Part shown: positions 1-55,303 of the stretch, piece by piece
Position numbering within the stretch: the stretch's first letter is position 1
How the letters are laid out: every line of letters begins with the position of its first letter
Assembly: GCA_030152305.1 (NCBI GenBank)
Contig: JASKOM010000005.1
Coordinates: forward strand, 79,620-143,619
Direction: 5' to 3'
From: Campylobacterota bacterium
GTDB taxonomy: Bacteria > Campylobacterota > Campylobacteria > Campylobacterales > Thiovulaceae
DNA: 64,000 nt
Made by a program: the position numbers and the translations under genes
Notes under the pieces: model-generated
What the model saw: the letters and a program-made list of their open reading frames with translations, nothing else
The model's database searches: none
What the model was told of the DNA's origin: nothing

Positions 1-110
1 TCCTGCAAAATTGTCAAAACATCTTTTGCGACAAACCAAATATTTTCATGTTCATCTTTGAGAGTTCTAATTTCGCTTGTGTCGTTAAATAAAAAAGGTA
101 TGATTTCCAA
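1..110 (-). CDS. Bro-N antirepressor, 5' part only (gene continues past the left edge)
   Basis: Bases 1-120 nearly duplicate 1213-1335. The minus-strand translation (M)EIIPFLFNDTSEIRTLKDEHENIWFVAKDVLTILQ matches the N-terminus of ORF 589..1374. A TAA lies just upstream, so the likely start is TTG at 110. Confidence 0.55.
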   Translation of the reverse strand, partial: MEIIPFLFNDTSEIRTLKDEHENIWFVAKDVLTILQ

Positions 111-205
111 TTGAAATCCTTAATTTGTGATTTATCTGAATTGAGAATAATTTTCCAGACTTCTCTCAATTCGGACAAATATATTGTATCATATTATTGA
201 TTTTT

Positions 206-469
206 TCAATATACTGATCGCCTTAACTCATTAGAAAATAGATTTTTTAAGATACTCTCTGTTTTTTGGCAATCTTGAAGCTGTTCTTTTAATTTATAAA
301 TTTCAATAAACATTTCTATCGATCTTAATGTGTGATTAGAAATTTTGCCTCTACTAATCGATGAATTTAAACTTTCAGGTTTTACACCAATTTTTTCCGC
401 CAACTCTTTTTGAGTGATTCCCAATTCGCGACATGTTTTTTTTACGATATTTTCGGATTCTTCAATCAT
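206..469 (-). CDS. Cro/CI (XRE)-type HTH regulator, cassette 1
   Basis: Conserved N-terminus MIEESENIVKKTCRELGITQKELAE (HTH helices 1-2), followed by a cassette-specific recognition helix and tail. Confidence 0.7.
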   Translation of the reverse strand: MIEESENIVKKTCRELGITQKELAEKIGVKPESLNSSISRGKISNHTLRSIEMFIEIYKLKEQLQDCQKTESILKNLFSNELRRSVY

Positions 470-540
470 AATAACCTTTCGTTTTTTATTTCTTAATATT
501 TTACAAAAAATAAAAAATTGAGTCTATTTTATGCTTTTCG
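470..540 (-). promoter_or_regulatory. Conserved cassette promoter/RBS region (extended -10 TGTAAAAT)
   Basis: The minus strand reads TTTTTGTAAAATATTAAGAAATAAAAAACGAAAGGTTATTATG. TGnTAAAAT lies at 498-505 and AAAGG lies 6 nt before the ATG. The same block recurs with TGTAAAAT at 1669-1676, 2873-2880 and 5243-5250. Confidence 0.5.
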
Positions 541-542
541 TC

Positions 543-579
543 ATCCCGAAGCGATAGCTCCTGTAATTTATTTCGGGAT
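543..579. repeat. CCCGAA/TTCGGG hairpin repeat (8-bp stem ATCCCGAA/TTCGGGAT, 21-nt loop)
   Basis: Inverted repeat read directly. It sits immediately after the antirepressor stop codon. Near-identical copies lie at 1714-1750, 2918-2954 and 52607-52641. Confidence 0.8.
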
Positions 580-588
580 CTAAGTTTA

Positions 589-1374
589 TTAAACTATCGA
601 TTTTATTTTCCATTTAATTTGACTAAATTTACCATTTATCTCAATACCAAAATCACGACCTATTTCTGTTAATTTCCAAATGCCATTTTCTCGAAGTTGA
701 AAACCTTTGTGTTCCAAAATCAAATTAACTTCGACTGGTGATTTATTGATCATTTTGCCTAATTCAGTCGGTAAGAAAAATTGTGAATCTAAATCTATTT
801 CGAAATGTTCAAGAACTGAAAAATTATGAAACTTGCGATAAAACTTGTCAAGTCGGTAAAGTGTTGTCGGCTTTTTTGATTCGAGGATTTCAATTAAACT
901 TGAAGTTTCGAGAACATCATTTTTTAGTTCGATAATTTGTTCAGTTGAGTTTCCAATTTCTGGAAGTTGAAAGTTTTGAGTTTGTGAAATTGAATAGTTT
1001 CCAGTTTTGCGAATTGACGGAAGAACTTCGTGAGTAACCCATTTTTGAAAAGGTTTTGCGATCGGTTTTCGACTTCTAATTATAAGTGAATATAATCCAG
1101 ATTCTGAAACAAATGTCATTTCTTGGACACCTCCAAAGGTCATAATTTTAAATGATCCCCTTTCATCGCTGTCTAAATCTTTTGTAGCTTCGCCAATGTT
1201 TGGATTATTATTATCCTGCAAAATTGTCAAAATATCTTTTGCGACAAACCAAATATTTTCGTGTTCATCTTTGAAAGTTCTAATTTCGCTTGTGTCGTTA
1301 AATAAAAAAGGTATGATTTCCAATTGAAATCCTTGTATTTTATTTGCAGTGGTTCTGGTTCGAAGCTTTACCAC
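589..1374 (-). CDS. Antirepressor: Bro-N domain + constant KilAC/ANT-like C-terminal module
   Basis: The N-terminal half (EIIPFLFNDTSEIRTFKDEHENIWFVAKDILTIL...FQKWVTHEVLPSIRKTGNY) has the Bro-N pattern. The C-terminal half is the array-wide constant module. The real start is probably TTG at 1323, by alignment with paralogs. Confidence 0.8.
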   Translation of the reverse strand: MVKLRTRTTANKIQGFQLEIIPFLFNDTSEIRTFKDEHENIWFVAKDILTILQDNNNPNIGEATKDLDSDERGSFKIMTFGGVQEMTFVSESGLYSLIIRSRKPIAKPFQKWVTHEVLPSIRKTGNYSISQTQNFQLPEIGNSTEQIIELKNDVLETSSLIEILESKKPTTLYRLDKFYRKFHNFSVLEHFEIDLDSQFFLPTELGKMINKSPVEVNLILEHKGFQLRENGIWKLTEIGRDFGIEINGKFSQIKWKIKSIV

Positions 1375-1427
1375 TGCTATAAAGAATTATAGCAAAAATA
1401 ATTATCAAAATTTAACAAAAAAGATAA

Positions 1428-1640
1428 TTAATTTGTCAATTGTTCTTTTATTGCAATGAACTTTTTTTCAATTCTTACGAGTTCAATTAATCTTGAAAAT
1501 ATTTTTGGTGGATCTGTGCGACCGTTTGCCCAATTATTAATACTTTGTCGCGAAACCCCCAACATATCGGCTAATTCAGTTTGAGTGATTCCCAATTCGC
1601 GACATGTTTTTTTTACGATATTTTCGGATTCTTCAATCAT
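1428..1640 (-). CDS. Cro/CI-type HTH regulator, cassette 2
   Basis: Same N-terminus as the other cassette HTH genes, then the variable segment LADMLGVSRQSINNWANGRTDPP... Confidence 0.7.
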   Translation of the reverse strand: MIEESENIVKKTCRELGITQTELADMLGVSRQSINNWANGRTDPPKIFSRLIELVRIEKKFIAIKEQLTN

Positions 1641-1713
1641 AATAACCTTTCGTTTTTTATTTCTTAATATTTTACAAAAAATAAAAAATCGAGTCTATTT
1701 TATGCTTTTCGTC

Positions 1714-1750
1714 ATCCCGAAGCGATAGCTCCTGTAATTTATTTCGGGAT
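1714..1750. repeat. CCCGAA/TTCGGG hairpin repeat copy
   Basis: Identical to 543-579. Confidence 0.8.
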
Positions 1751-1759
1751 CTAAGTTTA

Positions 1760-2518
1760 TTAAACTATCGATTTTATTTTCCATTTAATTTGAACAAACT
1801 TACCATTTATCTCAATTCCAAAATCTCGACCTATTTCTGTTAATTTCCAAATGCCATTTTCTCGAAGTTGAAAACCTTTGTGTTCCAAAATCAAATTAAC
1901 TTCGACTGGTGATTTGTTAATCATTCGACCTAATTCGGTCGGTAAGAAAAATTGCAAATCTAAATCTATTTCGAAATGTTCAAGCAGTGAAAAGTTATGG
2001 AACTTGCGATAAAACTTATCAAGTCGAAATAAATCAATCGGATTGAGATTTCGCAGAATTTCGATTAAGCTTGAAGTTTCTAGAACATCGTTTTTAAGTT
2101 CGATTATCTGTTCAGTTGAATTTCCAATTTCTGGAAGTTGTAGATTTTGAGTTTGTGGCTGAATTGGTTGAGATTTCTGATTTTGTAAAAGCTCTCGCAT
2201 TCTAAAGAATTCAGCAACTAAACGAACTTTGAAATCTAAAACGATGTCGTTATTTCTCATCATTGAAATTAATAAAGTCGCTTGTTGTTCGTTTAAAAAG
2301 TAGGTTTTTTCAGGTCGTCCATCTTTAAGATTTGTTTCAGAAAGTTTATGGATTTCAAATCCAATAACTCCAAAAAGTTCGAATTTATGGCTATTGTCTC
2401 GAATCAAACGGGAAACTGAATGTTCTTTATTTTCTGTTTGTTCAGCGATTACACGATGAGAAATTCGCGGTTCGTTGTCGATGAGTTCGACGATATTTGT
2501 GTTAGAATTTGAGTTCAT
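1760..2518 (-). CDS. Antirepressor: Rha-family (phage pRha-like) N-terminal domain + constant C-terminal module
   Basis: The N-terminus (RISHRVIAEQTENKEHSVSRLIRDN...EKTYFLNEQQATLLISMMRNNDIVLDFKVRLVAEFFRMRE) fits the Rha regulatory-protein pattern. The C-terminus is the constant module. Confidence 0.75.
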   Translation of the reverse strand: MNSNSNTNIVELIDNEPRISHRVIAEQTENKEHSVSRLIRDNSHKFELFGVIGFEIHKLSETNLKDGRPEKTYFLNEQQATLLISMMRNNDIVLDFKVRLVAEFFRMRELLQNQKSQPIQPQTQNLQLPEIGNSTEQIIELKNDVLETSSLIEILRNLNPIDLFRLDKFYRKFHNFSLLEHFEIDLDLQFFLPTELGRMINKSPVEVNLILEHKGFQLRENGIWKLTEIGRDFGIEINGKFVQIKWKIKSIV

Positions 2519-2601
2519 CTATCTCCAATTATTTATCTAAAATAGAAACTGCAATTTCTAAAATAGTTGGAGGAAACTATACCGTAATAATTCCTGTTTA
2601 T

Positions 2602-2844
2602 TTAACTTAAAACAGAAATGTTTCTCTTTTGTGTATTTTTAATAGCCGATAAAATTAAATTGTAACTGTTTTCAATTTCCAGCAATTGAATCAATCTATT
2701 AAAATTTTTTGGAATTTCAACTCGATTATTTGCCCAATTATTAATAGTTTTTTCTGTAATTCCAATTTTTTCCGCCAACTCTTTTTGAGTGATTCCCAAT
2801 TCGCGACATGTTTTTTTTACGATATTTTCTGATTCTTCGATCAT
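2602..2844 (-). CDS. Cro/CI-type HTH regulator, cassette 3
   Basis: Conserved N-terminus, followed by a variable recognition helix and tail. Confidence 0.7.
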   Translation of the reverse strand: MIEESENIVKKTCRELGITQKELAEKIGITEKTINNWANNRVEIPKNFNRLIQLLEIENSYNLILSAIKNTQKRNISVLS

Positions 2845-2917
2845 TTAAACCTTTCGTTTTTGATTTATTAATATTTTACAAAAAATAAAAAATCGAGTCT
2901 ATTTTATGCTTTTCGTC

Positions 2918-2954
2918 ATCCCGAAGCGATAGCTCCTGTAATTTATTTCGGGAG
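2918..2954. repeat. CCCGAA/TTCGGG hairpin repeat copy
   Basis: Same element, with one mismatch at the 3' arm end. Confidence 0.75.
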
Positions 2955-2963
2955 CTAAGTTTA

Positions 2964-3701
2964 TTAAACTATCGATTTTATTTTCCATTTAATTTGAACA
3001 AACTTACCAATAATCTCAATTCCAAAATCTCGACCTATTTCTGTTAATTTCCAAATGCCATTTTCTCGAAGTTGAAAACCTTTGTGTTCCAAAATCAAAT
3101 TAACTTCGACTGGTGATTTGTTAATCATTCGACCTAATTCGGTCGGTAAGAAAAATTGCAAATCTAAATCTATTTCGAAATGTTCAAGCAGTGAAAAGTT
3201 ATGGAACTTGCGATAAAACTTATCAAGTCGAAATAAATCAATCGGATTGAGATTTCGCAGAATTTCGATTAAGCTTGAAGTTTCTAGAACATCGTTTTTT
3301 AGTTCGATAATTTGTTCAGTTGAATTTCCAATTTCTGGAAGTTGAAAGTTTTGTGAAATTGAATAGTTTCCAGTTTTGCGAATTGATGGAAGAACTTCTT
3401 CCATAATCCAATTTTCAATTTTTTCAGCTTCAGGCAAATGCGATTTTATAATTAACCGCCAAACATCGCTTTCAGGTATTAATTTCGTTTGCGGATGTAA
3501 TCCTTCGCCTAATAGCGGAGTTTCACCGCTATTGATTAATACAGCGATAGAAACGGCTTTTTTACAGTGTTGAGCAACAGCATCTCTTTCTCTTTTATAA
3601 GCTAAAAGTTTGGCTATATCGTTTGCGACAAACCATTCACGATCGTCTATTAAGAGAATCCTTACTGAAAAGGTGTTAAAATTTTTCACGATTAAGTTCA
3701 T
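2964..3701 (-). CDS. Antirepressor: second Bro-N variant + constant C-terminal module
   Basis: The N-terminus is FSVRILLIDDREWFVANDIAKLLAYKRERDAVAQHCKK...WIMEEVLPSIRKTGNY. No MIEESEN-type HTH gene lies upstream of this one. Confidence 0.75.
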   Translation of the reverse strand: MNLIVKNFNTFSVRILLIDDREWFVANDIAKLLAYKRERDAVAQHCKKAVSIAVLINSGETPLLGEGLHPQTKLIPESDVWRLIIKSHLPEAEKIENWIMEEVLPSIRKTGNYSISQNFQLPEIGNSTEQIIELKNDVLETSSLIEILRNLNPIDLFRLDKFYRKFHNFSLLEHFEIDLDLQFFLPTELGRMINKSPVEVNLILEHKGFQLRENGIWKLTEIGRDFGIEIIGKFVQIKWKIKSIV

Positions 3702-3849
3702 GTTAATCCTTAATTTTGTTATGAGTAGAGGTAGTGGCTCAACTCATAACTATTCTAACAGCAACATCTTTAATTAAAGCTTAAAATGAATATTTTGTAA
3801 TTACTCGATAATTATAAAATTCTTCAAATATCAAATAAAAGGCTCATAT

Positions 3850-4026
3850 GTGATAGAAAATGAATATATTAAAACAACATGTAATTTAGAAAAAGGAATA
3901 AAACTAGATTCTCAAAAGATTGCTAAAAAAAAGGGCATCAATACATTAACAACTTTGATTCATATTTTATTAGTTGAATACATCGAAAAGAACAAAGAAA
4001 TACTAGAAAAAAAACAAACTTTTTAA
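3850..4026 (+). CDS. Possible 58-aa ribbon-helix-helix (CopG-like) protein, GTG start
   Basis: Hand translation gives VIENEYIKTTCNLEKGIKLDSQKIAKKKGINTLTTLIHILLVEYIEKNKEILEKKQTF. The strand-helix-helix pattern and an AAAAGG box upstream support it. It falls below the ORF-track size cutoff. Confidence 0.3.
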   Translation: MIENEYIKTTCNLEKGIKLDSQKIAKKKGINTLTTLIHILLVEYIEKNKEILEKKQTF

Positions 4027-4164
4027 TTATTTATTCGACCCCGTGTCATTGCCTGTAATGACGAAGTTGTTGTCATCCAGAAGCGAAGATCCCGTAATTT
4101 GTTTTGGGATCTAAATTAATTTGAAAGAAGACCCTGAAACAAGTTCAGGGCGACGAAAAGTTTA

Positions 4165-4896
4165 TTAAACTATCGATTTTATTTTCCATTTAATTTGAAC
4201 AAACTTACCATTTATCTCAATTCCAAAATCACGACCTAAATCTGTTAATTTCCAAATACCATTTTCTTTTATTTGAAAACCTTTGTGTTCCAAAATCAAA
4301 TTAACTTCGACTGGTGATTTATTGATCATTTTGCCTAATTCGGTCGGCAGGAAAAATTGCGACTCGAGGTTTATCTTAAAAGTTTCGAGTGGTGAAAAAT
4401 TATAAAATTCTTTATAAAATTGATCAAGTCGAAATAAATCAATCGGATTGAGATTTCGTAGAATTTCGATTAAGTTTGAAGTTTCAAGAACATCGTTTTT
4501 TAGTTCAATTATCTGTTCTGTTGCATTTCCAATTTCTGGAAGTTGCAAGTTTTGTGAAATTGAATAGTTTCCAGTTTTGCGAATTGATGGAAGAACTTCA
4601 CCAGCGATCCATTTTTGAAAAGGTAAAGCTTTCGGTTTATCTGAACGACCTATAAAAAAATATAATCCTTGTTCTGATAAAACAGCCATGTTTTGGATTC
4701 TATCTTTGCCCATAATCGGTTTATGGTCTCGCCATTCATTAGGCACATTTGCCATTAAATTATTTAATTGATTTATACTAGATTGTGGATATTCTAAGGC
4801 TATTGCTATATCTTTTGCAACAAACCAAATATTATTATCGATTACGATAGTTCGAATTTCTTTTTGTTCATCAAAGAAAAATGGTAGTATTTGCAT
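4165..4896 (-). CDS. Antirepressor: third Bro-N variant + constant C-terminal module
   Basis: The N-terminus is MQILPFFFDEQKEIRTIVIDNNIWFVAKDIAIALEY...FQKWIAGEVLPSIRKTGNY. The C-terminus is the constant module. Confidence 0.8.
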   Translation of the reverse strand: MQILPFFFDEQKEIRTIVIDNNIWFVAKDIAIALEYPQSSINQLNNLMANVPNEWRDHKPIMGKDRIQNMAVLSEQGLYFFIGRSDKPKALPFQKWIAGEVLPSIRKTGNYSISQNLQLPEIGNATEQIIELKNDVLETSNLIEILRNLNPIDLFRLDQFYKEFYNFSPLETFKINLESQFFLPTELGKMINKSPVEVNLILEHKGFQIKENGIWKLTDLGRDFGIEINGKFVQIKWKIKSIV

Positions 4897-4968
4897 ATAA
4901 AACCTATATTTTTATTTTAACGGTAGCGACGACTTGAGAACTTGCCCTACTGTTAAAAAGATTTTAAC

Positions 4969-5214
4969 TTATTGTTTTATAAAAGTCAAATCTCTTGAAT
5001 CGATTTCTAAAAATAGTTTTCTAATCATAAAATATTGTTTTTGAATTAATAAAAGCTCAACGATTTTTTCTAAAATTTTTGGTGGTTGGATTTTATTATT
5101 CGCCCAATAGCTAACACTTTGTTTAGAAACCCCCATGATTTCCGCCAACTCTTTTTGAGTGATTCCCAATTCGCGACATGTTTTTTTTACGATATTTTCG
5201 GATTCTTCAATCAT
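4969..5214 (-). CDS. Cro/CI-type HTH regulator, cassette 4
   Basis: Conserved N-terminus, followed by a variable recognition helix and tail. Confidence 0.7.
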   Translation of the reverse strand: MIEESENIVKKTCRELGITQKELAEIMGVSKQSVSYWANNKIQPPKILEKIVELLLIQKQYFMIRKLFLEIDSRDLTFIKQ

Positions 5215-5333
5215 AATAACCTTTCGTTTTTTATTTCTTAATATTTTACAAAAAATAAAAAATCGAGTCTATTTTATGCTTTTCGTCATGCCAAAGTGAA
5301 AGCCGTCATCCCGAATTTATTTCGGGAGCTAAG

Positions 5334-5351
5334 TCCGTGCCACGACACGGA
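5334..5351 (-). terminator. GC-rich hairpin just after the R-M operon stop (TCCGTG-N6-CACGGA)
   Basis: The 6-bp stem was read directly. No clear U-tract follows. It is adjacent to a short CCCGAA hairpin at 5309-5327. Confidence 0.35.
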
Positions 5352-5359
5352 ACTAATTT

Positions 5360-6400
5360 TTAAAATTTAATTTTTGTAGATGCTATTTTTTGATTTGTGT
5401 ATAAAACAACATTTTTTATAATATTTTTTTGAAGAGCTGAAATCAAAATTTCCATTGTTTCATAATCAGGTTGATTGTTTTTTACTGGAAGTAATAACAA
5501 CTGATCGTTTATAATATTGACATTAAAGCTAGAAGCTCCCCATGAAAAAGAACTAAATGTTTTAGCCATTGATGTAATAAAAAACTGTGCATTTAGCCTA
5601 TTTAATTTGTTATCTTTTGATTTAATTATTTTTATTTTATCTCCAGTAAAATATGGTTGCTCTTGATAAAACATTGTTGCTGTATCTTGCCCAAAAGATA
5701 TAGTGTTTCCATCATTTAAATATTGTTCATTTTCGTTGATGTATCCACGAATTCCATTATTTAAGCTTGTTCTTACTACATATGGATGTCCAGTTTCTGA
5801 AATAGTTACTTTGTTTGCATCAAACCGTTCTTTAGAAGATATTACTTCGAATAAATTACTAACTTTAAATTCTTTCCACTCAAAACTGTAAAAATCTGCT
5901 AAAAGTTTTTCTTCTTGATTTGTTAGTTCGAAACTATTTAAACCAGTTGCAATTAAATAAGCTTTAAGTTCAGCTATTTTTTGAGATTCAAGTTCAGCTA
6001 TAAAACTTTCCATAAATTCAAAATCTATTTCACCGTTTTTTGTTGGGAGTTTGATTTTCTCTTTTGTAATTTTTGCCCAAGAACACATATTTTCATAACC
6101 AAATTTCTTATTCAAAAAATATAACGAATTAGTTAAAAATAAACCTTGTTTTTCTGTCATTTCAAAATTTGGTTTTAATGAAAAAACTCTTGCATGTGTT
6201 ACCATTTTATACTTGAATTTACGGTAAAAAGCATTTCCAAACATATCAATTGTTATTGTGTTTTCGTCAAAGATTTTCGCTTCTACATTAGTCTTACCTA
6301 AAACACCATTTTCAGTTAATCCTGAGGTAATTACATAATAACCAATGCCATTAATATGTTCTTTCTGAATATCAAAGTTACCATTTGAACTTTCAAACAA
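5360..6400 (-). CDS. R-M specificity subunit (HsdS/BcgIB-like, two target-recognition domains)
   Basis: Two TRD-like halves are separated by a helical spacer (FMESFIAELESQKIAELKAYL). The frame stays open upstream to about 6475 and encodes IPLSEKLNNVKWGEFKLGDLFE, the typical S-subunit N-terminus, but has no ATG/GTG there. The ORF-track start is an internal TTG. Confidence 0.7.
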   Translation of the reverse strand: MFESSNGNFDIQKEHINGIGYYVITSGLTENGVLGKTNVEAKIFDENTITIDMFGNAFYRKFKYKMVTHARVFSLKPNFEMTEKQGLFLTNSLYFLNKKFGYENMCSWAKITKEKIKLPTKNGEIDFEFMESFIAELESQKIAELKAYLIATGLNSFELTNQEEKLLADFYSFEWKEFKVSNLFEVISSKERFDANKVTISETGHPYVVRTSLNNGIRGYINENEQYLNDGNTISFGQDTATMFYQEQPYFTGDKIKIIKSKDNKLNRLNAQFFITSMAKTFSSFSWGASSFNVNIINDQLLLLPVKNNQPDYETMEILISALQKNIIKNVVLYTNQKIASTKIKF

Positions 6401-6459
6401 ATCACCAAGTTTAAATTCGCCCCACTTAACATTATTTAATTTTTCGCTAAGTGGGATAT

Positions 6460-8493
6460 TTACTTTCCCTCGTTGTCATCCCGTTGTTTGAGAATTTGTG
6501 AAACTTCCCACGATAAATAATCGCTTATTGTTTTTGTAAAATCTTTTAAAGTTGGTTCGGTGTCAATTGGTGCAGTTTGATTCCAATCAGCTCCATTTTC
6601 TGGATCGATATGACCTTCGTGATATTCTTTATATGAGAATATATTTAATTTATTTTCACCAAAACGAACTAAATTAACAAGTTCTTCATATCGTTCTTTT
6701 GCTCTATCAGAATCTTTGAGATTGCTACTTGCTTTTTTGCGATTTGTTCGTGTGTAACCATCATTTGAAAAATCAATAAATTTAACAATGTCAAAATATT
6801 GATGAGGTTCGCCAACTCTGAAAACATAAATATTCGTTTGAACACTTGATTTACCAATAAATAGATCAACAGGCATTTTTATACTTGCTAATAATGTATG
6901 TTTTTGGAGAATTCTTTTATTATAATCTCGAGCTTTTCCAGAACCAGCAGAATTTTGAATAATTACAGCACCGTAACCTTTATTCATCATATTTAAAGCA
7001 GTTTCAACAAAGTTCATGCCATTTCCATTTGCAGAATATGGAGGATTAAGAACAAGAGCAGTTGCGGGAAACTTTTTATCATTTTGACCAAAACCGTAAT
7101 TGCCTTCAAAATCAGTCAATGAGTTTTTATTTAAAATATTAGAACTTCCATCACCCATTAAGATCATATTCAAAATAGCCAACATATAAACACTTGATAA
7201 TAATTCAATACCTAAAAGCTGTTCAGATTTAATTTTTAGCTCTTTTTGAATTAATTCATCAGGAGACTGAATTTGTAATTCAGCATCATTTAACATTTCA
7301 TTCATTGAAGCAACTAACAAACCAGCTGAACCAGTTGCAAAATCCCAAACATAAGAATCTTTATTAACTCGAGTTAATTTTGCTAAAAGAGTAGCCACAT
7401 AAGTAGGAGTCAAAACAACATCATTTAATTTATCTTGAGAAAAACCTAACCAGCCATACATTTCATTAAAAAGTTTGCCTGTAAAATCAGTTGTCAAACC
7501 TATTTTATAATAAAAGCCTAAATCATCAAATATTTTAATAAATACTCTTTTTAACTGTGTTTCGCCATTTGTTACTTTGTTAATATTTTCAGTCAATAAT
7601 GTATTTGATAATGTTCTAACGATTAAATCTTGTTTATCTCTCGGTAAATTTTTTTCATTTAAAAAATCTACAATTCTGCGAATCATAATATCGCCGTCGC
7701 GATAGCCAATTTCAGTCAAAGATTTTAAATCAGTTTTTTCAAGAGGAGCAACTTTTCCAGCTACTCCAATTGTCGCAATAATCGAACTTGCAACAAGATA
7801 AACACGATCATTTTCACCTAAGCCTTTTTCATTTTGATAAATATCATTATTGAGATTTACTAAACTGATATCGATTTCTCGTTCTTTTTGCTCTTTTATT
7901 TCTTCTTGTTCAGCTTGAGACAAAGTTAATTTTTTTACCTCATCGATAAAATCATCAAAATTTTCTTTTTTTAAAAATGAAAAATCAGAATAATTACCAA
8001 CTTTTTGACCAACACCAAAATTCGATTTTGAAACAAAATAAACAGCTATATCATGTTTAATTTTTTCATTGTCGTCTTTATAACCTGTCATTCCAATAGC
8101 GATAACATTCGTATAACTCGTATAATGCAAAATAGCAGTAGCATAATGAACAGCACCATTTACAGCATAAGAACTTATATTTTTAAAAAGATATTCATTT
8201 TTAGAATTTGAATTTTCTACTTGATTACTTTTGTTTAATTTAACAAGTTTGTCTTTATGACCTTTATATTCAATTAATATTGGATAATAATTTTTATATT
8301 TATCTTGAAGCAATAATTTAACATCAGGTCTATTTCCGCCTTTGCCACCATTTTTTGAAAAGTAATCGTTAAGAGCTTTATCAATTTCACTATTTAATGG
8401 ATTCTGTTCCAACTTGTAATCTAAGTTATAAGACTTTAACCAGCCATTACCTATTTCAGCTATATTTGGTTCTATTGATTGTTTATTTAACAT
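6460..8493 (-). CDS. Fused endonuclease-N6-adenine methyltransferase (type IIB BcgIA-like subunit)
   Basis: Gamma-class MTase motifs occur in the order DFATGSAGLL (motif I) then NPPYS (motif IV). The N-terminal ~300 aa contain a PD-(D/E)xK-like signature (RPDVKLL...ILIEYKG). No HsdR gene is nearby. The 677 and 346 aa sizes resemble BcgI A and B. Confidence 0.65.
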   Translation of the reverse strand: MLNKQSIEPNIAEIGNGWLKSYNLDYKLEQNPLNSEIDKALNDYFSKNGGKGGNRPDVKLLLQDKYKNYYPILIEYKGHKDKLVKLNKSNQVENSNSKNEYLFKNISSYAVNGAVHYATAILHYTSYTNVIAIGMTGYKDDNEKIKHDIAVYFVSKSNFGVGQKVGNYSDFSFLKKENFDDFIDEVKKLTLSQAEQEEIKEQKEREIDISLVNLNNDIYQNEKGLGENDRVYLVASSIIATIGVAGKVAPLEKTDLKSLTEIGYRDGDIMIRRIVDFLNEKNLPRDKQDLIVRTLSNTLLTENINKVTNGETQLKRVFIKIFDDLGFYYKIGLTTDFTGKLFNEMYGWLGFSQDKLNDVVLTPTYVATLLAKLTRVNKDSYVWDFATGSAGLLVASMNEMLNDAELQIQSPDELIQKELKIKSEQLLGIELLSSVYMLAILNMILMGDGSSNILNKNSLTDFEGNYGFGQNDKKFPATALVLNPPYSANGNGMNFVETALNMMNKGYGAVIIQNSAGSGKARDYNKRILQKHTLLASIKMPVDLFIGKSSVQTNIYVFRVGEPHQYFDIVKFIDFSNDGYTRTNRKKASSNLKDSDRAKERYEELVNLVRFGENKLNIFSYKEYHEGHIDPENGADWNQTAPIDTEPTLKDFTKTISDYLSWEVSQILKQRDDNEGK

Positions 8494-11421: not shown

Positions 11422-11775
11422 TTATTTATCTCCTAATAATTTTCTTAAATCTGCACCTTTTGAATTAAACGGTGAAAAATTTAAATTTTCTTTTAATAAT
11501 CTGCCAAGATGACATTCACGACATTTATCGATATGAATATGTTCTGGAATATTTCTCGAAATAGATTCGACTTTATGACATTGAAAACAGTCCGCTCCAC
11601 ATTCGGCTGACCCGATATTTTTCGTATGACATTCTTTGCATAAAAGCATTGGTTGATGTTCGTTATCTAATTTTTCTAATAACTTTGGATGACAACTAAA
11701 ACAGTCGCCATCGCAACTATTTGCCGATGAGGTCGCAAAAACAAATAATAAAATAGCTGAAAATAAATTTGTCAT
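11422..11775 (-). CDS. Small secreted tetrahaem cytochrome c
   Basis: Signal peptide plus four CxxCH motifs (CFSCH, CKECH, CFQCH, CRECH). Confidence 0.7.
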   Translation of the reverse strand: MTNLFSAILLFVFATSSANSCDGDCFSCHPKLLEKLDNEHQPMLLCKECHTKNIGSAECGADCFQCHKVESISRNIPEHIHIDKCRECHLGRLLKENLNFSPFNSKGADLRKLLGDK

Positions 11776-11864: not shown

Positions 11865-12605
11865 ATGCTATCTGATCTTGACATGATCGATAAAATAGAA
11901 AAGACAGAAAATATTCAAGTTGAAAGCACATTGAATAAACTTCTTTTTAAATTAATAAATTTCGAATGGCGAATTTCTGATCGAACGATCATCGAACATA
12001 CAAAACTTCAAAAAAGAACAGTGATGAGATCAATAAACAATAATATTGAGTTATTAAAATCTTGGGGAACTATAGAAGAAGCTTTTGACTATGTTCAAAC
12101 TATTGACGGAATTGTTAAAGAAAAAACATATTTTTTCACAAAACATCAAGCTTTACAGTTGTTAAGTTATATGAAACGAACAGATCATGTTTTAGATCTT
12201 ATAGTTGATATCTTAAAAGAACAAGAGAGATTAGAGCCAATTGCCAAAATTTTGAAAACAGATCAAGAAGTTGATTACAAAATCGAAGATGAATTAAAAA
12301 GTTATGTAACTCATCTTAGTGAATTAATCGAGATTCTAAAACGACAATATAAACCATTTGGTATTTTTAATGATGCTATAACAAAACAATTAGATAAATA
12401 TCTTTCAGCTCTTGGTGATGAATATTGGAAACCAGCCGAAATTGCAGAAATTACAAATAAAAAAGTTTCGGCTGTGAATAGACTATTAGAATCAAAGGAT
12501 TATCAAATTCAAGAAAATGGTGTTTGGATAATGACAGAAAAAGGTCGTGAATTCGGTGTTGAATTAAACGGTAATTTAAGATGGCTTTTAAGGTCTGTAT
12601 TATAA
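11865..12605 (+). CDS. Orphan, diverged antirepressor paralog (Rha-like N-terminus, KilAC-like C-terminus)
   Basis: EKTYFFTKHQALQLLSYMKRTDHVLD parallels the Rha domain of ORF 1760..2518. The C-terminus (AEIAEITNKKVSAVNRLLESKDYQIQENGVWIMTEKGREFGVELNG) parallels the constant module at low identity. Confidence 0.6.
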   Translation: MLSDLDMIDKIEKTENIQVESTLNKLLFKLINFEWRISDRTIIEHTKLQKRTVMRSINNNIELLKSWGTIEEAFDYVQTIDGIVKEKTYFFTKHQALQLLSYMKRTDHVLDLIVDILKEQERLEPIAKILKTDQEVDYKIEDELKSYVTHLSELIEILKRQYKPFGIFNDAITKQLDKYLSALGDEYWKPAEIAEITNKKVSAVNRLLESKDYQIQENGVWIMTEKGREFGVELNGNLRWLLRSVL

Positions 12606-37366: not shown

Positions 37367-39028
37367 TTATCTTATAGGATTAAGCGAAAAGTTGTTTATT
37401 AATTCAAAGTGATTAGTTTTATTATATTCAGTATTGACTAATTCTCGATTATTCCAGAATACTTTAACAGTTTTGTTTTTGTCAAGAGTCCAATTTAACT
37501 TAAGAGATTCACCTGGTTCATAATATCGATCAAGTGCTAAAAAAACACCGCCAATTTCTCTAAAAAGATATTTTGCTTCACCGTCAGAACCGTAATATAA
37601 AAATAGATCGATACGATTTTGATATTCAGAAAAATGATAATTATAAATTCCTTTTGAATTTGGAGCAGTATCATTTGGAATAAACTTATCGAAACTGTTA
37701 TCTTTTCGAATCCAAATCGAGTCAGCCATAATGTCTGAAAGTTTAATTTTTGTTAAACCTTCTCGTTCTTGATTATAACTATGCATTGAAGCACCTTGTG
37801 AAACAGCATTATTTTTAGAAAAATCTATAAATTCTACTTGTGTATTTTGAAAAAATTTACTCAAGACTTCTTTGACAAGATAAAACTTAGAACTGCCACC
37901 AGTAAAAATAAAAAGATCGATATCTTGTCTATTAATTTTGTGATTAATTAAACTATCTTTTAACGGTTTGATTAAATTACCTTGATCCGATAATAGATTT
38001 GTAAGTATTTTATTTTTTAATAATTTATCAGTTATTTCTAAATCGTTTATATATCTTCCATTAAGCAATTCAAAATTAACAGTTGTGTTAAATCTTTCTT
38101 TCATTCGTGGATTATTTAAACGATCAATAATTCCATTATTAAAATCTATTTTGAACTTTTCAGCCATATATACAGCTTTTGCAATCATTTTTGCCTGATC
38201 TTCGTCGTTTAATTGATCAATGTTTTGATTACCTGGAGTTTCATTGAACTGATCTAAAAAATAAGAAGCAATAGCTTGATCGATATTATCACCGCCGAAA
38301 TCCATTCGTTTTGATCTTCCAATAATGTTTATATCAAAATCATTTTCATCAATATCAAAATGAACATTTGCAATAGAAATATCTAATGTTCCACCGCCGA
38401 TGTCATAAACAACAACTTTTTTAGCTTGTTCAAAATATAAATTATCGAATTTATTAGATTCATTGCCAATTGTATTAATAAAATTTAGTAAAACAGCTGT
38501 TGGCTCATCTAAAATCATCGGATTTGAAAAACCTGCAATTTCCATTGCATGAATTGTTGCATTTCGTTCATCGCTGTTAAATGCCGCTGGAATTGTTACA
38601 GTAACTTTATTAAAATTATTTGTGTTAAATCTTTCAACAAGAGAGTTATAAACTGTTTTTAATAATATTGCTGAAAGTTCTGTCATTCCATATGATTTAA
38701 TATCAGAATTATTAGAAAGTTTTGGAACATCGATTACGGCAATTGTTCCCATTCGTGTTTTAACAGAACGAATTGTTTGTAACGGATATGTGCCATTTCC
38801 ATATAAATATTTTGCATAAGCTCCAGTATAAATTTTTCGATTATCTCGATCAATATAAATACTTGATTGAAGACCTTTTGAATTTCTATCAAATTCAAAG
38901 TTTTCATTCATTTGATAAATATTAATTGTTGTTAATTTATCAAGAGGATTTTCCCTGTTGTTTAAAATTTCAATCACTGAAACTGTTGTTTCGGTTGTGC
39001 CTAAATCGATGCCTACATATAAAGCCAT
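37367..39028 (-). CDS. Hsp70/DnaK-like ATPase paralog 4 (last gene of the operon)
   Basis: VGIDLGTTETT, LDEPTAVLL, VYDIGGGTLDIS, FTGGSSKF, followed by a ~140-aa beta-rich C-terminus. Confidence 0.8.
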   Translation of the reverse strand: MALYVGIDLGTTETTVSVIEILNNRENPLDKLTTINIYQMNENFEFDRNSKGLQSSIYIDRDNRKIYTGAYAKYLYGNGTYPLQTIRSVKTRMGTIAVIDVPKLSNNSDIKSYGMTELSAILLKTVYNSLVERFNTNNFNKVTVTIPAAFNSDERNATIHAMEIAGFSNPMILDEPTAVLLNFINTIGNESNKFDNLYFEQAKKVVVYDIGGGTLDISIANVHFDIDENDFDINIIGRSKRMDFGGDNIDQAIASYFLDQFNETPGNQNIDQLNDEDQAKMIAKAVYMAEKFKIDFNNGIIDRLNNPRMKERFNTTVNFELLNGRYINDLEITDKLLKNKILTNLLSDQGNLIKPLKDSLINHKINRQDIDLFIFTGGSSKFYLVKEVLSKFFQNTQVEFIDFSKNNAVSQGASMHSYNQEREGLTKIKLSDIMADSIWIRKDNSFDKFIPNDTAPNSKGIYNYHFSEYQNRIDLFLYYGSDGEAKYLFREIGGVFLALDRYYEPGESLKLNWTLDKNKTVKVFWNNRELVNTEYNKTNHFELINNFSLNPIR

Positions 39029-39040
39029 TTATTTTCCTGC

Positions 39041-40693
39041 TTAATTATCTTGATTGTTTTGAGTTGCAACAGTTTCAGCTTTTTGAGTTTCAACTATTTT
39101 TTCTAATTTTGCATGAATAACAACTGTGCCATCAACAGAAATAGCTGGAGAAAGAACTTTAAATTTATCAAAACTTAATTCGCCTTTAATAAAACGAGCA
39201 AAATCATTTTGGTTATTTGCATTGATTTCAATTACCTCATCTTTTGCAAATTTTTCAGTAATTATTTCACCAAACATTGATTGAACAGTTAAAAAGCTTG
39301 ATTCAAATTGCACTGCCAACTGTTTAGCTATTTTGATTTGAGCCTGTTTTTTGCCTTCAGCAATTCCGTTTTGTTTAGCTTGATTAAGTTTTTCAGCATG
39401 ATTTTTTGCATCTACTTTAGCTTGTTCAAGGTCAGCTTTTTCTTGAATATATTTTTGAGAAATATAAGCTAAATGTTCCAAACCATCAACCATATATTTA
39501 TGAAGATCAACAATTGCTTTTTCTTCAACAGGAATATGTAAATCTGCTTGTTGTTTTGAATTAAGATTATCAAGTTTTTTGTTGATTAACTTCAATTCTT
39601 CTGTTTGTTTTGTAAGAGTTGCAGGTAGCATTTCTAAATCTTGAATAAGCGGTTGAGAAAGTTTTTTATTAATTTCATCAACTGGAGTTTTAAGATCGTC
39701 AATTACAACATCAGTAAATTTAATTAATTTCTGATCTATTTTGTTTATTCCTTCTTGAATTGAACCTTTAATATTTTCATGAAAGTTTTTTGTTTTTTCA
39801 GCAAGATCTTTAGCTTGTTGTTCAACACTTTTTTCAGCACTTGTAACTTTACTGCTTATCATGTCGATGTCATATTTTGCAGGCAAACTTCTCACCGATG
39901 AGGTGTTGTTTTCTATTATTTTTACTGAAGTTTTCAAACTGGATATATCATTTTCAAGATTTCTTGTTGTTGAACTTTTAATAACTGTTAAGTCTGTTTT
40001 AACAGATTCAAGAGATTTTTTTATCTCTGTTAGAACTGAAATATCGAATGTTGCTTTCATTTTGTCCTCTTCTGTTTTTTTATTGTTTGATTGATCGCTG
40101 ACCTCATCGTTATTTTTATTTGATGAAGAAAGTGCATTTTGCGAACCGCTACTTTGTGCTGAATTGTTGTTTGATGGAATATTTGATTCAACTACCAACC
40201 AACCTTGACAAGCTGTTTGTGCTTCTTTGTTTGAACCTCTTTGAACATTTAATTTTTGTTTTTCACAAATGTTTTTTAACAGTTCGTCAATTTCTGTATT
40301 TTTCAAATAACAACGAATTCTAATTCCAGCTAAAGCTGTCCAAAAACCATCTTTTAAAGAATCACTAGGATAGATATCTTTTGCTACAGTTTTTAAAACA
40401 TTAATAACAGCTTCAATTACATCTTTTTGATTTTTTTTATCTGTAAGACAAGATTGGTTTTTATCAAGTCCATTGTTTGCTGTTTCCAACTTTTGTAAAA
40501 GTTGGTTATTATTTTGTATTCCCACTTTTTTACCCTTTCCATTTTTATTTGGTTTATTGTTTGGTTTATTTTCTTGTTTCTTTGGAGGCTTAACAGCACT
40601 AACTTTTTGTTCAGTCCCCTGTTTTGCAGGATTAAAAACTAAATTTTTTACAGTATTTACAAAATCTGTGATTATTGACATTTTAATTATCAA
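39041..40693 (-). CDS. Lys/Asn/Gln-rich coiled-coil protein, C-terminus possibly GrpE-like
   Basis: Basic low-complexity N-region, long heptad-like central region, and a C-terminal end (FKVLSPAISVDGTVVIHAKLEK) that resembles the GrpE beta-domain tail. Confidence 0.5.
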   Translation of the reverse strand: MIIKMSIITDFVNTVKNLVFNPAKQGTEQKVSAVKPPKKQENKPNNKPNKNGKGKKVGIQNNNQLLQKLETANNGLDKNQSCLTDKKNQKDVIEAVINVLKTVAKDIYPSDSLKDGFWTALAGIRIRCYLKNTEIDELLKNICEKQKLNVQRGSNKEAQTACQGWLVVESNIPSNNNSAQSSGSQNALSSSNKNNDEVSDQSNNKKTEEDKMKATFDISVLTEIKKSLESVKTDLTVIKSSTTRNLENDISSLKTSVKIIENNTSSVRSLPAKYDIDMISSKVTSAEKSVEQQAKDLAEKTKNFHENIKGSIQEGINKIDQKLIKFTDVVIDDLKTPVDEINKKLSQPLIQDLEMLPATLTKQTEELKLINKKLDNLNSKQQADLHIPVEEKAIVDLHKYMVDGLEHLAYISQKYIQEKADLEQAKVDAKNHAEKLNQAKQNGIAEGKKQAQIKIAKQLAVQFESSFLTVQSMFGEIITEKFAKDEVIEINANNQNDFARFIKGELSFDKFKVLSPAISVDGTVVIHAKLEKIVETQKAETVATQNNQDN

Positions 40694-42200
40694 TTACTGA
40701 AGTCATTTCAGCTGTTTGTATTAACAGATCTTGTTCGTTATAAAACTTAACTTCTATTTGATTTTGTAAACTTTCTCTAGATATTGATATTCTCACACGA
40801 TTATTTGTCAAATTTTGTGTATTAAATATTACTTTGCCAATTTTTGTGCAATTATCGATTTGCGAAGAATCACCTTCATAAATATAAATTGTTAAATTCG
40901 TATTATTTTGATTATTTGCAAAATAATAATCTTGTTTTGATGATTCGATACCGTAATCATGATTTTTTGACAAAATAGGTTTAAACGATGTGCCTTGAGC
41001 GATACCGATACTTTTGCTAGTTTTTTTAATAACTTTAAATGTAACATTGCCTCCCTTTGTCATTCCAGCAACAATACCAGCACCGTGTCCAACTAGTTCG
41101 TTTAAATTAGGTCTCGATTCAGGCTCTTTGCCAAAAAATTTATGAAGCAATTTTTTAATTGCAGGAATTGCACTTGAACCACCAGCTAAAATAACTCGAT
41201 CAATATCTTTAGGTTCAATAGTTAAATTATTATCAGAATAAAAAAGTTGTTCGAGCGAGTTTTGAATTCGACCTAAAACATTATGAACTCTTAATAATTT
41301 TTCTAAGTCGTTTCTATTAAAAGTAAAATCTAAAGTTTTTTCTTTGCCATTAACAACAAAAACCTCAAAAATTTCGTATTCGTCATCTGTTGAAAGCAAT
41401 TCTTTAGTTTGACGAGCAAGTGTATAAAGAGTTAATTTAAATTTCGCTCTTTCGTTTTCATTTGAAAAATCTTGCCAATTTACATTTAATTTTTTTCGAA
41501 ATTCTTCAGTAATTAAAAAATCGATGTCATTTCCACCCAAGTTTTCAACACCGTCAGTATTTAAAACTTCGAGTGTTACATTTGTTTGATTGTTTTTGAA
41601 ATTAATTAAAGTTGTATCAAGAGTTCCACCACCAAAATCAAAAACAACGATATTTTCTTGATGATTATTAGTTTGTATTGTTTGATTTAGCATTCCAAAA
41701 GAGATCGCCGCTGAAACAGGTTCTTCAATAAGACCGATAACAGTCAAACCAGCATTTTCAGCTGATTGAACGATAAGTTTGCGATAATTTTCAGAATAAG
41801 AATAAGGAACAGTTATAACAACACCATCAATTTTACGATTTTCGTTAGATTCAACTTTATTTTTGATAGATGAAAAAATCATTGTTGCAAGTTCTATTGG
41901 TTTAACTCTACGATTATTTAAATTTTTAACAGTGTAAAAAGTATCGTTAGTAACAATAAATCTTTTTATATCTTTAAAAAAATTTAAAGGATCAGCTGAT
42001 CCTCTTGTTGTTGCCGTATTTCCTATAATATTATTTTTGTCATTTTCAATATATATAACATTTTCAAATATATTTGAACCTCCAAATTGTCCTAAATTAG
42101 CAACAGGAACAGCATTATTTCTTACAAAATCATATTTTGTTACAAACATTGTTGATGTGCCGAAATCAATACCTAAATACAACATTTTTAATTTTTCCAA
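40683..42200 (-). CDS. Hsp70/DnaK-like ATPase paralog 3
   Basis: LGIDFGTSTMF, IEEPVSAAISFG, VFDFGGGTLDTT, LAGGSSAIPAIKK. Confidence 0.8.
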   Translation of the reverse strand: MEKLKMLYLGIDFGTSTMFVTKYDFVRNNAVPVANLGQFGGSNIFENVIYIENDKNNIIGNTATTRGSADPLNFFKDIKRFIVTNDTFYTVKNLNNRRVKPIELATMIFSSIKNKVESNENRKIDGVVITVPYSYSENYRKLIVQSAENAGLTVIGLIEEPVSAAISFGMLNQTIQTNNHQENIVVFDFGGGTLDTTLINFKNNQTNVTLEVLNTDGVENLGGNDIDFLITEEFRKKLNVNWQDFSNENERAKFKLTLYTLARQTKELLSTDDEYEIFEVFVVNGKEKTLDFTFNRNDLEKLLRVHNVLGRIQNSLEQLFYSDNNLTIEPKDIDRVILAGGSSAIPAIKKLLHKFFGKEPESRPNLNELVGHGAGIVAGMTKGGNVTFKVIKKTSKSIGIAQGTSFKPILSKNHDYGIESSKQDYYFANNQNNTNLTIYIYEGDSSQIDNCTKIGKVIFNTQNLTNNRVRISISRESLQNQIEVKFYNEQDLLIQTAEMTSVIDN

Positions 42201-44954: not shown

Positions 44955-45067
44955 ATTTTTTTATCCTTTATGTTAATTTATATTTTATATACGATGAGGT
45001 ATTAAATGCTTAAATGCTGAATTCGATGAAATTATAAAATCCAGCATTGACAAAAAATAGCTAAAAA

Positions 45068-47066: not shown

Positions 47067-47069
47067 AGC

Positions 47070-52561: not shown

Positions 52562-52606
52562 ATTTAATATTTTTGGCTTGATCATCATCTCAAAGCAAAA
52601 CAAGTC

Positions 52607-52641
52607 ATCCCGAAGCGATAGCTCCTGTAATTTATTTCGGG
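52607..52641. repeat. CCCGAA/TTCGGG hairpin repeat copy
   Basis: GTCATCCCGAAGCGATAGCTCCTGTAATTTATTTCGGG, as in the 1-5 kb array. Confidence 0.75.
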
Positions 52642-52669
52642 CTCTTTTCTTTTTTCACGGAACTACGAA

Positions 52670-53413: not shown

Positions 53414-53502
53414 AGATTAATCCCTTTGATGTAAAAAGTTTGTTGCAATAGAATTATATATCTTTTGGGGATTAATTACAATTATATTGTAGATATAAAG
53501 TA

Positions 53503-53835: not shown

Positions 53836-53912
53836 AACATCCCGAACTCGTTTCAGGATCTAATTAATTTGAAATATTTGAATTGCTATTTTTGTGTGAA
53901 GTTTAATATAAG

Positions 53913-54098: not shown

Positions 54099-54207
54099 AA
54101 AATACCTTATTGCATAATCTTTCGATATTTTATCCGAAAATCAGATACTTGACTATTGTCCGAATTTCGGATAAAATTTTGAGTGAATTTTAAATTAAAG
54201 GAACTAA

Positions 54208-55243: not shown

Positions 55244-55303
55244 CAACCTGCTTTATTAAATTGAAGCCCATGATAGGCTTCACCTTTCCCGAATTCATTT
55301 CGG

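Follow-up and report, generated by a model that had tools for sequence, protein, structure and literature searches.

Head-to-tail units of a small regulator and an antirepressor-type gene with differing N-terminal domains in a Thiovulum-related Campylobacterota genome

What does it mean when a gene of a kind that phages normally carry singly is found repeated, one copy after another, in a bacterial genome? Antirepressor-type proteins, in which a Bro-N, KilA-N or Rha domain is joined to a C-terminal module, are very common and poorly understood products of phages and other mobile elements, and the left end of a 64,000-nt stretch of contig JASKOM010000005.1 (positions 79,620-143,619) of a Campylobacterota bacterium raises this question. 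The whole stretch is called the window here, and all positions are given in its numbering. In its part 1-5345 open reading frame (ORF) listing and repeat finding revealed head-to-tail units on the minus strand with a period of 1171-1204 nt, containing five antirepressor-type genes, Ant0 to Ant4, of which Ant0 is cut by the window edge. According to our analysis the array is best read as a lineage-specific expansion in a Thiovulum-related Campylobacterota genome, and we hold it to be rather probable that the units are autonomous, self-repressed, phage-derived modules of the Xre-Bro type, that homologous recombination between the conserved ends of units multiplied them and turned them into mosaics, and that they gather in variable regions.

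Read along the minus strand from its 5' side, the array consists of a boundary block, HTH4, Ant4, a terminator-like hairpin with a degenerate copy of the boundary element, the oppositely oriented ORF58, Ant3, and then three times a boundary block with a pair of genes, HTH2 and Ant2, HTH1 and Ant1, HTH0 and Ant0. It starts 15 nt past the stop codon of a restriction-modification (R-M) specificity gene, and all of its reading frames are intact. The genes named HTH encode Xre-type helix-turn-helix (HTH) regulators, ORF58 a protein resembling ribbon-helix-helix (RHH) regulators, and CTD denotes the C-terminal domain of the Ant proteins. The features in ascending order are as follows.

1-110, minus strand: 5' part of Ant0, first 36 codons, Bro-N type, TTG start at 110.
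111-205, minus strand: HTH0-Ant0 spacer with a unit-specific inverted repeat (138-146 / 164-172), whose score is reached by 2 of 300 shuffles.
206-469, minus strand: HTH0, 87-aa Xre-type regulator (Pfam HTH_3, E 1.3e-5), N-terminal 25 aa conserved, recognition-helix region divergent.
470-588, minus strand: boundary block with inverted repeat ATCCCGAA/TTCGGGAT (543-579), promoter-like TAGACT-17-TAAAAT (526-498) and a ribosome-binding site.
589-1323, minus strand: Ant1, Bro-N (E 1.3e-21) and CTD; no stop interrupts the frame as far as GTG 1374.
1324-1427, minus strand: HTH1-Ant1 spacer with inverted repeat GCAGTGGT-N16-ACCACTGC (1346-1377) and a TGCTATAAT-like motif; 0 of 300 shuffles.
1428-1640, minus strand: HTH1, 70-aa Xre-type regulator (HTH_3, E 6e-11).
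1641-1759, minus strand: boundary block with hairpin and promoter-like site (1697-1669).
1760-2518, minus strand: Ant2, Rha-type N-domain (Phage_pRha, E 1.1e-13) and CTD.
2519-2601, minus strand: HTH2-Ant2 spacer, inverted repeat at chance level (195 of 300 shuffles).
2602-2844, minus strand: HTH2, 80-aa Xre-type regulator (HTH_3, E 1.3e-8).
2845-2963, minus strand: boundary block with hairpin and promoter-like site (2901-2873).
2964-3701, minus strand: Ant3 (identical with paralogue P0001), Bro-N (Pfam) and CTD, the protein modelled with AlphaFold2.
3702-3849, unstranded: divergent control region of Ant3 and ORF58 with inverted repeat GTTATGAGTAGAG-N7-CTCAACTCATAAC (3718-3750); 3 of 300 shuffles.
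3850-4026, plus strand: ORF58, 58-aa RHH-like protein, divergent from Ant3 and in place of an HTH partner.
4027-4164, minus strand: Ant4 3' region with terminator-like hairpin (4151-4131, z -3.4) and degenerate boundary-element copy (4109-4096).
4165-4896, minus strand: Ant4, Bro-N (E 3.5e-19) and CTD.
4897-4968, minus strand: HTH4-Ant4 spacer with inverted repeat TTTTAACGGTAG-N20-CTACTGTTAAAA (4915-4958); 5 of 300 shuffles.
4969-5214, minus strand: HTH4, 81-aa Xre-type regulator (HTH_3, E 1.1e-9), the first gene of the array.
5215-5345, minus strand: upstream-most boundary block with a tight hairpin CCCGAA-ATAAA-TTCGGG and promoter-like site (5271-5243).

An earlier note on this DNA had described at least five consecutive minus-strand cassettes, each an HTH gene with an antirepressor gene, with three versions of Bro-N and one Rha among the N-terminal domains. 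The number, strand and spacing of the cassettes were borne out, and Pfam agreed on the domains, finding Bro-N in 589-1374, 2964-3701 and 4165-4896 and Phage_pRha in 1760-2518. The pairing with a co-directional Xre HTH gene holds for four of the five units, and the Ant3 unit has the divergent RHH-like ORF58 instead. The array also extends beyond the left window edge, because Ant0 in translation is P0022, an intact 244-aa protein of the same contig, which measures 168,297 bp. At DNA level positions 1-121 and 1214-1334, the N-domains of Ant0 and Ant1, are 98% identical from the ribosome-binding site onwards, and judging from P0022 the start of Ant1 is probably TTG 1323 rather than GTG 1374. Two more paralogues, P0015 and P0016, lie on the contig outside the window, and the contig as a whole has eight.

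Conservation changes abruptly along a unit. The boundary block with HTH codons 1 to about 25-28 (MIEESENIVKKTCRELGITQKELAE) has 89-95% DNA identity between units (94-100% in its non-coding part), the remainder of the HTH gene 47-62%, the Ant N-domain 45-68%, and the last 381 nt of Ant, which encode the CTD of about 125 aa common to all Ant genes, 82-99%. Exact-match tracts between units measure 53-287 bp, the one of 287 bp being common to units 2 and 3. The alternation of conserved and variable blocks which had been described before is confirmed as a layout; the conserved blocks had been called near-identical, and at 82-99% they are not, the CTDs of Ant2 and Ant3 being the sole pair to reach 98.7%. 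The view of the variable block as one linked stretch had to be given up. The Ant N-domain is common to units 0 and 1, but their HTH 3' parts and spacers are unrelated, which rules out a single co-inherited block; HTH part and Ant N-domain assort independently, so what looked like one variable block is two modules.

Exchange is apparent also on the scale of the family. Among 40 paralogues that were compared, first halves of the CTD with 91-100% identity are joined to unrelated N-domains, and the opposite combination occurs too: P0001 and P0012 have N-domains with 23% identity and CTDs with 98%, while P0006 and P0022 have N-domains with 83% identity and CTD first halves with 61%. These comparisons support a swapping of N-domains onto a common C-domain. 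For most pairs the synonymous divergence (dS) of the CTD is 0.41-0.66 and the ratio of nonsynonymous to synonymous divergence (dN/dS) 0.14-0.20; by this measure most copies are old, held under purifying selection rather than newly duplicated. Toward the 3' end dS drops, to 0.23-0.32 over the last 64 codons. The boundary and HTH 5' block is much more alike than the synonymous sites of the CTD, and this points to conversion tracts centred on that block or, alternatively, to strong constraint on it. As to the proposal that blocks are exchangeable by homologous recombination, the exact tracts are long enough for it and the mosaicism is compatible with it, whereas the high dS argues against a rapid ongoing exchange.

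Several elements in the non-coding parts suggest that each unit carries its own control region. An inverted repeat CCCGAA/TTCGGG follows every Ant stop codon, and the promoter-like TAGACT-17-TAAAAT is conserved about 30 nt ahead of the HTH start in the boundary blocks. The hairpin expected in the conserved block is accordingly present as an inverted repeat after each Ant stop; its folding is weak. As an intrinsic terminator it was ruled out, having no U-tract and a folding z of about -2, the exception being the separate terminator-like site at 4151-4131. A second kind of inverted repeat differs from unit to unit, and in four of five regions, counting the HTH-Ant spacers and the divergent region of ORF58 and Ant3, it exceeds what shuffling gives (at most 5 of 300). 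Because a spacer travels with the variable half of the HTH gene, we take these repeats for putative private operators or possibly RNA hairpins.

The Ant proteins begin with domains known from antirepressors. Pfam gives Bro-N at 1e-19 to 1e-21 in three genes, Phage_pRha at 1e-13, and KilA-N at 1.5e-11 in a sixth gene described below, and PHROG anti-repressor families match as well. The AlphaFold model of Ant3 (alignment of 65 sequences, mean pLDDT 87) consists of Bro-N at residues 1-110, a disordered linker at 117-125, two long helices at 127-167 and a winged-helix-like module of helix, helix and hairpin at 186-239. In PDB, Foldseek matched the N-terminal part weakly to Mbp1, Ski-DHD and a baculovirus N-domain, and the remainder weakly to MarR, CAP and Z-alpha winged helices and to DdrC; the structure matches in BFVD were due to Bro-N and nothing else. 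In the model the two ends of the protein both look DNA-binding.

The CTD itself has no sequence match in Pfam, PHROGs, PADLOC or, by profile, in PDB. It is rare globally, its profile collecting 125 clusters at 50% identity among 1.84 billion proteins. Its distant relatives align over the winged-helix part only and carry Bro-N, AntA, KilA-N, P22_AR_N, Rha or ORF6N as N-domains; one of them has a sub-threshold match to ANT/KilAC (PF03374, E 0.0015). An hhalign comparison of the CTD with the C-terminus of the antirepressor of Liberibacter phage SC2 gave E 3.4e-4 at 38% probability, and a Rha-like regulator of Geobacillus virus E2 matches the CTD weakly. The N-terminus of the HTH proteins is conserved across species. 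ORF58 belongs to a family of nine members with a beta-alpha-alpha sequence pattern and has no Pfam match; Foldseek with its model put RHH proteins (NikR, CopG, Arc, ParD) in nearly all top places, all at E of at least 0.48. Pfam, PHROG and the AlphaFold model disclosed no catalytic or killing domain in the proteins of a unit.

The PurA of the window is closest to Campylobacterota contigs (84%, then about 75%), and named sequences of Thiovulaceae and Sulfuricurvum stand at about 66%. The Ant family is strikingly numerous in this organism. Drawn from the best 120 homologues, about 43 paralogues are found on eight NCBI contigs with ~1.65 Mb in total, compared with at least six copies in Thiovulum sp. 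ES and at least three in Ca. Thiovulum stygium. The named homologues of Ant belong to Thiovulum sp. ES and to one locus in Ca. T. stygium, and a scan of a genome collection found relatives in Ca. T. stygium only. In Thiovulum sp. ES (AKKQ01000006, our locus L026) an array of three cassettes with the same repeat layout stands between nuo genes and terD/trx/lytB, and the sites of the arrays are not syntenic between species. A toxin-antitoxin (TA) pair of RHH and PemK/MazF type occupies 7394-7949 of this locus, between the second and the third HTH-Ant cassette, and a different hairpin-containing repeat (GCTAAAAAATTTAGC) is located upstream of cassettes 1 and 3.

Both kinds of partner recur among the relatives. 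The co-oriented pair of Xre HTH and Ant is present in four of the five array units, in a sixth cassette of the window, in the three units of L026, in several metagenome contigs and in L027, a single cassette at a contig end. ORF58 homologues lie divergently upstream of Ant genes at L001, L002-5, L006, L007, L018 and L025, an arrangement that Ca. T. stygium and Thiovulum sp. ES share with another genus and several metagenome contigs. This RHH-like gene is the partner in the single cassettes L001, L002 and L025, the last of them beside a type ISP R-M enzyme. In T. stygium a Rha-type copy with an ORF58-like gene adjoins an N6/N4 methyltransferase, and relatives have solitary copies at stable places amid housekeeping genes, one of these relatives on 24 contigs. 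The related metagenome contigs are all 1-4 kb long, and several of them (L011, L019, L022) contain tandem junctions. Assemblies break systematically at members of this family. Tens of chromosomal copies, tandem arrays both here and in ES, and a constant C-domain with swapped N-domains appear to be unreported; the literature searched held nothing relevant on Thiovulum antirepressor arrays or on tandem antirepressor families.

Is the locus then a piece of a phage? It had been proposed that the setting is chromosomal rather than that of a prophage, and the housekeeping right flank, the position of the Thiovulum sp. ES array between host genes and the lack of relatives in IMG/VR agree with this. 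The right flank holds, besides R-M genes, those for MutS2, Tmk, Lon, PurM, PurA, MiaA, SucCD, chemoreceptors and GGDEF proteins. Pfam annotation covered about 40 of the 59 window ORFs of at least 100 aa, and in this annotated part of 5.3-64 kb we found no integrase or recombinase, no att repeats and no phage structural or lysis genes; there are no tRNA genes in the window, and GC is flat at about 0.30 across array and chromosome. No Ant relatives were found among 2.9 million IMG/VR contigs or on plasmids, and housekeeping flanks surround the family on the right side of the window and at L001, L002, L025-L027 and L029. The locus is probably not a prophage. The other part of the earlier proposal, a heteroimmune library of immunity and anti-immunity modules with a decoy or defence role, found no direct support, PADLOC giving no significant match.

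The remaining family members of the window and the R-M neighbour of the array are these.

5360-8493, minus strand: BcgI-like R-M pair of type IIB/IIG (Pfam), co-oriented with the array and directly upstream of it, a neighbour rather than a part of the cassettes.
11865-12605, plus strand: diverged solitary member with a weak Rha-like N-domain and a CTD at 35-37% identity, no small partner gene seen.
52670-53413, minus strand: Ant6, KilA-N and CTD, full length with an in-frame TAA at codon 17; its stop is followed by the same boundary hairpin as in the array (52604-52645).
53503-53835, minus strand: HTH6, the Xre partner of Ant6, with homology to the other HTH proteins from near residue 36.

The diverged orphan at 11865 and a sixth cassette of KilA-N type at 52670-53835 had both been foreseen, and both proved correct, the former as a Rha-like protein with the same CTD and the latter by Pfam. 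The in-frame TAA of Ant6 reflects either a pseudogene or a sequencing error, and the downstream part of 188 aa is all that the ORF finder reports; the true start of HTH6 probably lies, by homology, inside its ORF. Next to cassette 6 the boundary-hairpin element of about 46 nt, CAATTCAAATATTTCAAATTAATTAGATCCyGAAAyGArTTCGGGA, is present in two direct copies on the minus strand (~53840-53900 and 55287-55330) which flank 53913-55243; between them are a frameshifted 5-methylcytosine (m5C) methyltransferase (54208-54471 and 54473-55243) and a 61-aa HTH-like ORF (53913-54098).

The R-M pair consists of a fusion of restriction endonuclease and methyltransferase (6460-8493, 677 aa; PADLOC REase_MTase_IIG, 782 bits) and a two-domain specificity subunit (5360-6400, 346 aa; PADLOC Specificity_II, 257 bits). 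A shufflon of hsdS type, or other invertible specificity cassettes, was considered and rejected: the repeats are direct and lie in HTH and Ant rather than in the specificity gene, of which there is one, and no recombinase is among the annotated ORFs. A DNA methyltransferase or R-M gene immediately adjoins an Ant cassette in four of nine contexts from three organisms (5360-8493 and 54208-55243 in the window, 7340-9037 in L001 and 6482-9604 in L025), which we judge informally to be far above random placement. Two further loci in the window deserve mention for their own sake. Four diverged Hsp70-like paralogues on the minus strand at 37367-48494, with unannotated proteins of 265-550 aa between them, a PIN_4 fusion (42978-44738) and a seemingly split VWA fusion (45068-45373 and 45363-47066), may form a system for conflict or defence. 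A secreted-looking protein of 117 aa (11422-11775, minus strand), encoded between Tmk and the diverged orphan, has four CXXCH-type motifs of a multihaem cytochrome c and is unrelated to the cassettes.

The anatomy, domains, mosaicism, expansion and chromosomal surroundings are observations, and from these we infer how such a module might repress itself, use its operator, act as an effector and serve a biological role. A unit has the make-up of a complete operon, with the boundary element (inverted repeat, promoter-like site, ribosome-binding site), the HTH gene, the spacer and Ant. Its HTH protein, of 70-87 aa and Xre type, has its first two helices conserved and its recognition-helix region variable, and the spacer travelling with it usually carries the private inverted repeat. 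Ant, of about 245 aa, combines an interchangeable N-domain (Bro-N, Rha or KilA-N, with AntA in more distant carriers of the same CTD), a flexible linker and the CTD with its two long helices and winged-helix-like end; the divergent RHH-like protein of 58 aa is the alternative partner. By analogy with Arc and Mnt, which control ant of P22, the small protein is predicted to repress its own unit through the private inverted repeat, and it may also neutralise the Ant-like protein, the presumed effector, which would bind either DNA or a repressor. The array and its mosaicism probably came about through gene conversion and unequal crossing-over, acting between the conserved sequences at the 5' and 3' ends of the units, and conversion would be strongest near the promoter and the 5' block of HTH. 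Such modules may behave as semi-selfish elements, similar to toxin-antitoxin systems or engaged in phage conflict, beside R-M and TA genes.

A number of points weigh against this reading. Xre-Bro as a repressor and antirepressor pair was listed among toxin-antitoxin-like mobile two-gene modules by Makarova, Wolf and Koonin (2009, PMC2701414), who describe it in phages and not in bacterial genomes and with Ant/KilA-C as C-domains, so that filing a chromosomal expansion there stretches their description. The absence of phage genes covers the window to the right of the array (5.3-64 kb), and the left side could hold a prophage or an island. That the eight NCBI contigs make up one genome is inferred from their sizes and from the occurrence of a single PurA. 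A short-read contig from the Logan assembly of the source sample (SRR24719468_207, our L028) ends about 100 nt after the specificity gene, near window position 5260 in the first boundary block; short-read assembly breaks at the array, and consequently the cassette order and some junctions of N-domain and CTD could be chimeras. PADLOC has no significant defence-system match for the cassettes. Repression, operator binding and any toxicity of Ant are putative. Among the control elements, the promoter-like sites are not enriched over shuffles, the boundary hairpin folds weakly (z between -1.7 and -2.4 for the copies of the array, +0.9 for the one after Ant6) and lacks a U-tract, and the HTH2-Ant2 spacer is without a significant inverted repeat.

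Other explanations share a part of this evidence. The modules may have been kept as an anti-phage repertoire, each Ant N-domain recognising DNA or a regulator of a different invader and causing exclusion, premature induction or abortive infection, with the HTH or RHH protein holding the unit silent until infection and the R-M genes marking a defence island. We regard it as rather unlikely. It would be logical for diversified DNA-binding N-domains on a constant C-domain, for copies which purifying selection shows to be in use, for a chromosomal family absent from viral contigs, for the R-M or methyltransferase neighbour in four of nine contexts and for the TA pair interleaved in the Thiovulum ES array; but five of the nine contexts have no defence gene nearby, any mobile module landing in variable regions would be expected beside R-M genes just as well, neither a catalytic or killing domain nor a significant PADLOC match was found, and the host has no known phage. 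Purifying selection (dN/dS 0.14-0.20) would also suit domesticated host regulators, that is transcription factors or nucleoid-associated proteins which expanded with their own small co-regulators, control host genes and have no part in conflict. Solitary copies with a stable place amid housekeeping genes, as on 24 contigs from one relative, two protein ends that both look DNA-binding and the HTH N-terminus conserved across species are in line with this, whereas copy number varies greatly (at least three in T. stygium, at least six in ES, about 43 here), the array sites are not syntenic between species, and arrays, mosaicism, a pseudogenised copy and the association with TA and R-M genes typify genes that are mobile or engaged in conflict rather than core regulators; we find such a role unlikely. 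A bolder idea makes the boundary element and the winged-helix CTD a recognition pair, in an integrase-less, recombination-driven cassette system that builds combinatorial arrays and is able to capture other genes. It is hinted at by the bracketed, frameshifted m5C methyltransferase, by R-M genes at four of nine sites and by the TA pair in the ES array, and we consider it quite improbable; in a milder version the array may be a diversified anti-phage recognition repertoire.

Two possibilities concern the completeness of what we see. To the left of the window there might be the integrase and structural genes of a prophage, satellite or integrative island, with the cassettes at its edge as the immunity or early region. 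For every component there is a phage relative with an annotation as antirepressor or Rha regulator, and the array runs off the left window edge, the evidence coming from the right side only. We think this very unlikely, since P0015 and P0016 on the contig suggest further cassettes and not phage genes, the ES array is bounded by housekeeping genes on both sides, the SC2 homologue is a single gene, and about 43 copies are spread over eight contigs with no IMG/VR relative and a flat GC of ~0.30. To our knowledge there is also no phage with five or more tandem ant cassettes. Least of all do we expect a partial assembly artefact, in which the cassettes would be real and their order, number or junctions of N-domain and CTD would come from reads mis-joined across repeats of ~600 bp in a metagenome-assembled genome. 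The Logan contig stopping where the array begins, related metagenome contigs of 1-4 kb without exception and the 287-bp exact tract shared by units 2 and 3 fit such an error; tandem HTH-Ant-HTH junctions occur independently in Thiovulum ES and in metagenome contigs L011, L019 and L022, unique variable sequence stands on both sides of each repeat in every unit, and the reading frames are intact.

If these are autonomous Xre-Bro-type modules, they are of interest beyond this locus. They make a natural combinatorial series, with one constant C-domain, at least four kinds of N-domain, and for each its own small regulator and inverted repeat, so that experiments can address the partner logic directly, matching each HTH to the repeat it binds and each end of Ant to its own binding partner. 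A phage regulatory module has here expanded to about 2% of the genes in a genome of about 1.7 Mb of an uncultured large sulfur bacterium, and the array family explains the poor assembly of such genomes at these loci. The R-M adjacency, if upheld, would indicate a regulatory or mobility link between the modules and restriction systems.

The array is unusual in scale and organisation, yet it is built from known parts. It resembles integron cassette arrays in having small head-to-tail units, each bounded by an imperfect inverted repeat, and further in the TA pair inside the ES array and the methyltransferase pseudogene bracketed by two copies of the boundary element; unlike in integrons, each unit has its own promoter-like site and the homology between units reaches into coding sequence. 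An integron was rejected, as no integrase is among the annotated ORFs of the window, inspection by eye showed no attC core (RYYYAAC/GTTRRRY) in the boundary element ATCCCGAA...TTCGGGAT, for which no formal attC search was run, and it is an R-M specificity gene that lies upstream of the array. The immI region of phage P22 (mnt / arc-ant) is closer in its control. There the antirepressor Ant, with P22_AR_N/C domains and the C2 repressor as its target, stands under two tiny RHH repressors, Arc being co-transcribed upstream and Mnt divergent, and it is a single copy inside a phage. The co-directional HTH gene and the divergent ORF58 hold the positions of Arc and Mnt, and inverted repeats lie in the control regions; in contrast to P22, the units here are repeated and mosaic.

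On the level of the protein itself, full-length matches in phages are confined to the Bro-N antirepressors of Liberibacter phages SC1/SC2, which align at 29% identity with 97% of the protein and are its closest phage relatives; their C-terminal region matches the winged-helix part of the CTD. SC2 has one such gene, located among replication genes, and its annotation shows no small HTH gene beside it. Iyer, Koonin and Aravind reportedly described, in 2002, regulators of DNA viruses in which KilA-N, Bro-N and Rha are shuffled as domains. With these viral families and the baculovirus bro families the array shares interchangeable N-domains, multiple copies and recombination. In the bro families Bro-N is constant and the C-terminus varies, and they are viral, whereas in the array the C-terminus is constant and the N-domain varies, and the genes are chromosomal and paired with a small regulator.

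The comparison that fits best with our reading is that with the Xre-Bro module. The present units differ from it in being chromosomal and tandem, in 40 or more copies, in a CTD that Pfam does not recognise, in N-domains that are also of Rha and KilA-N type, and in the divergent RHH-like partner of some units. The two-gene arrangement, in which the gene of a small Xre HTH protein immediately precedes a Bro-N gene, is common to both, and so are the patchy, non-uniform distribution with expanded copy number and the location among toxin-antitoxin and R-M genes, at insertion sites which differ between species.

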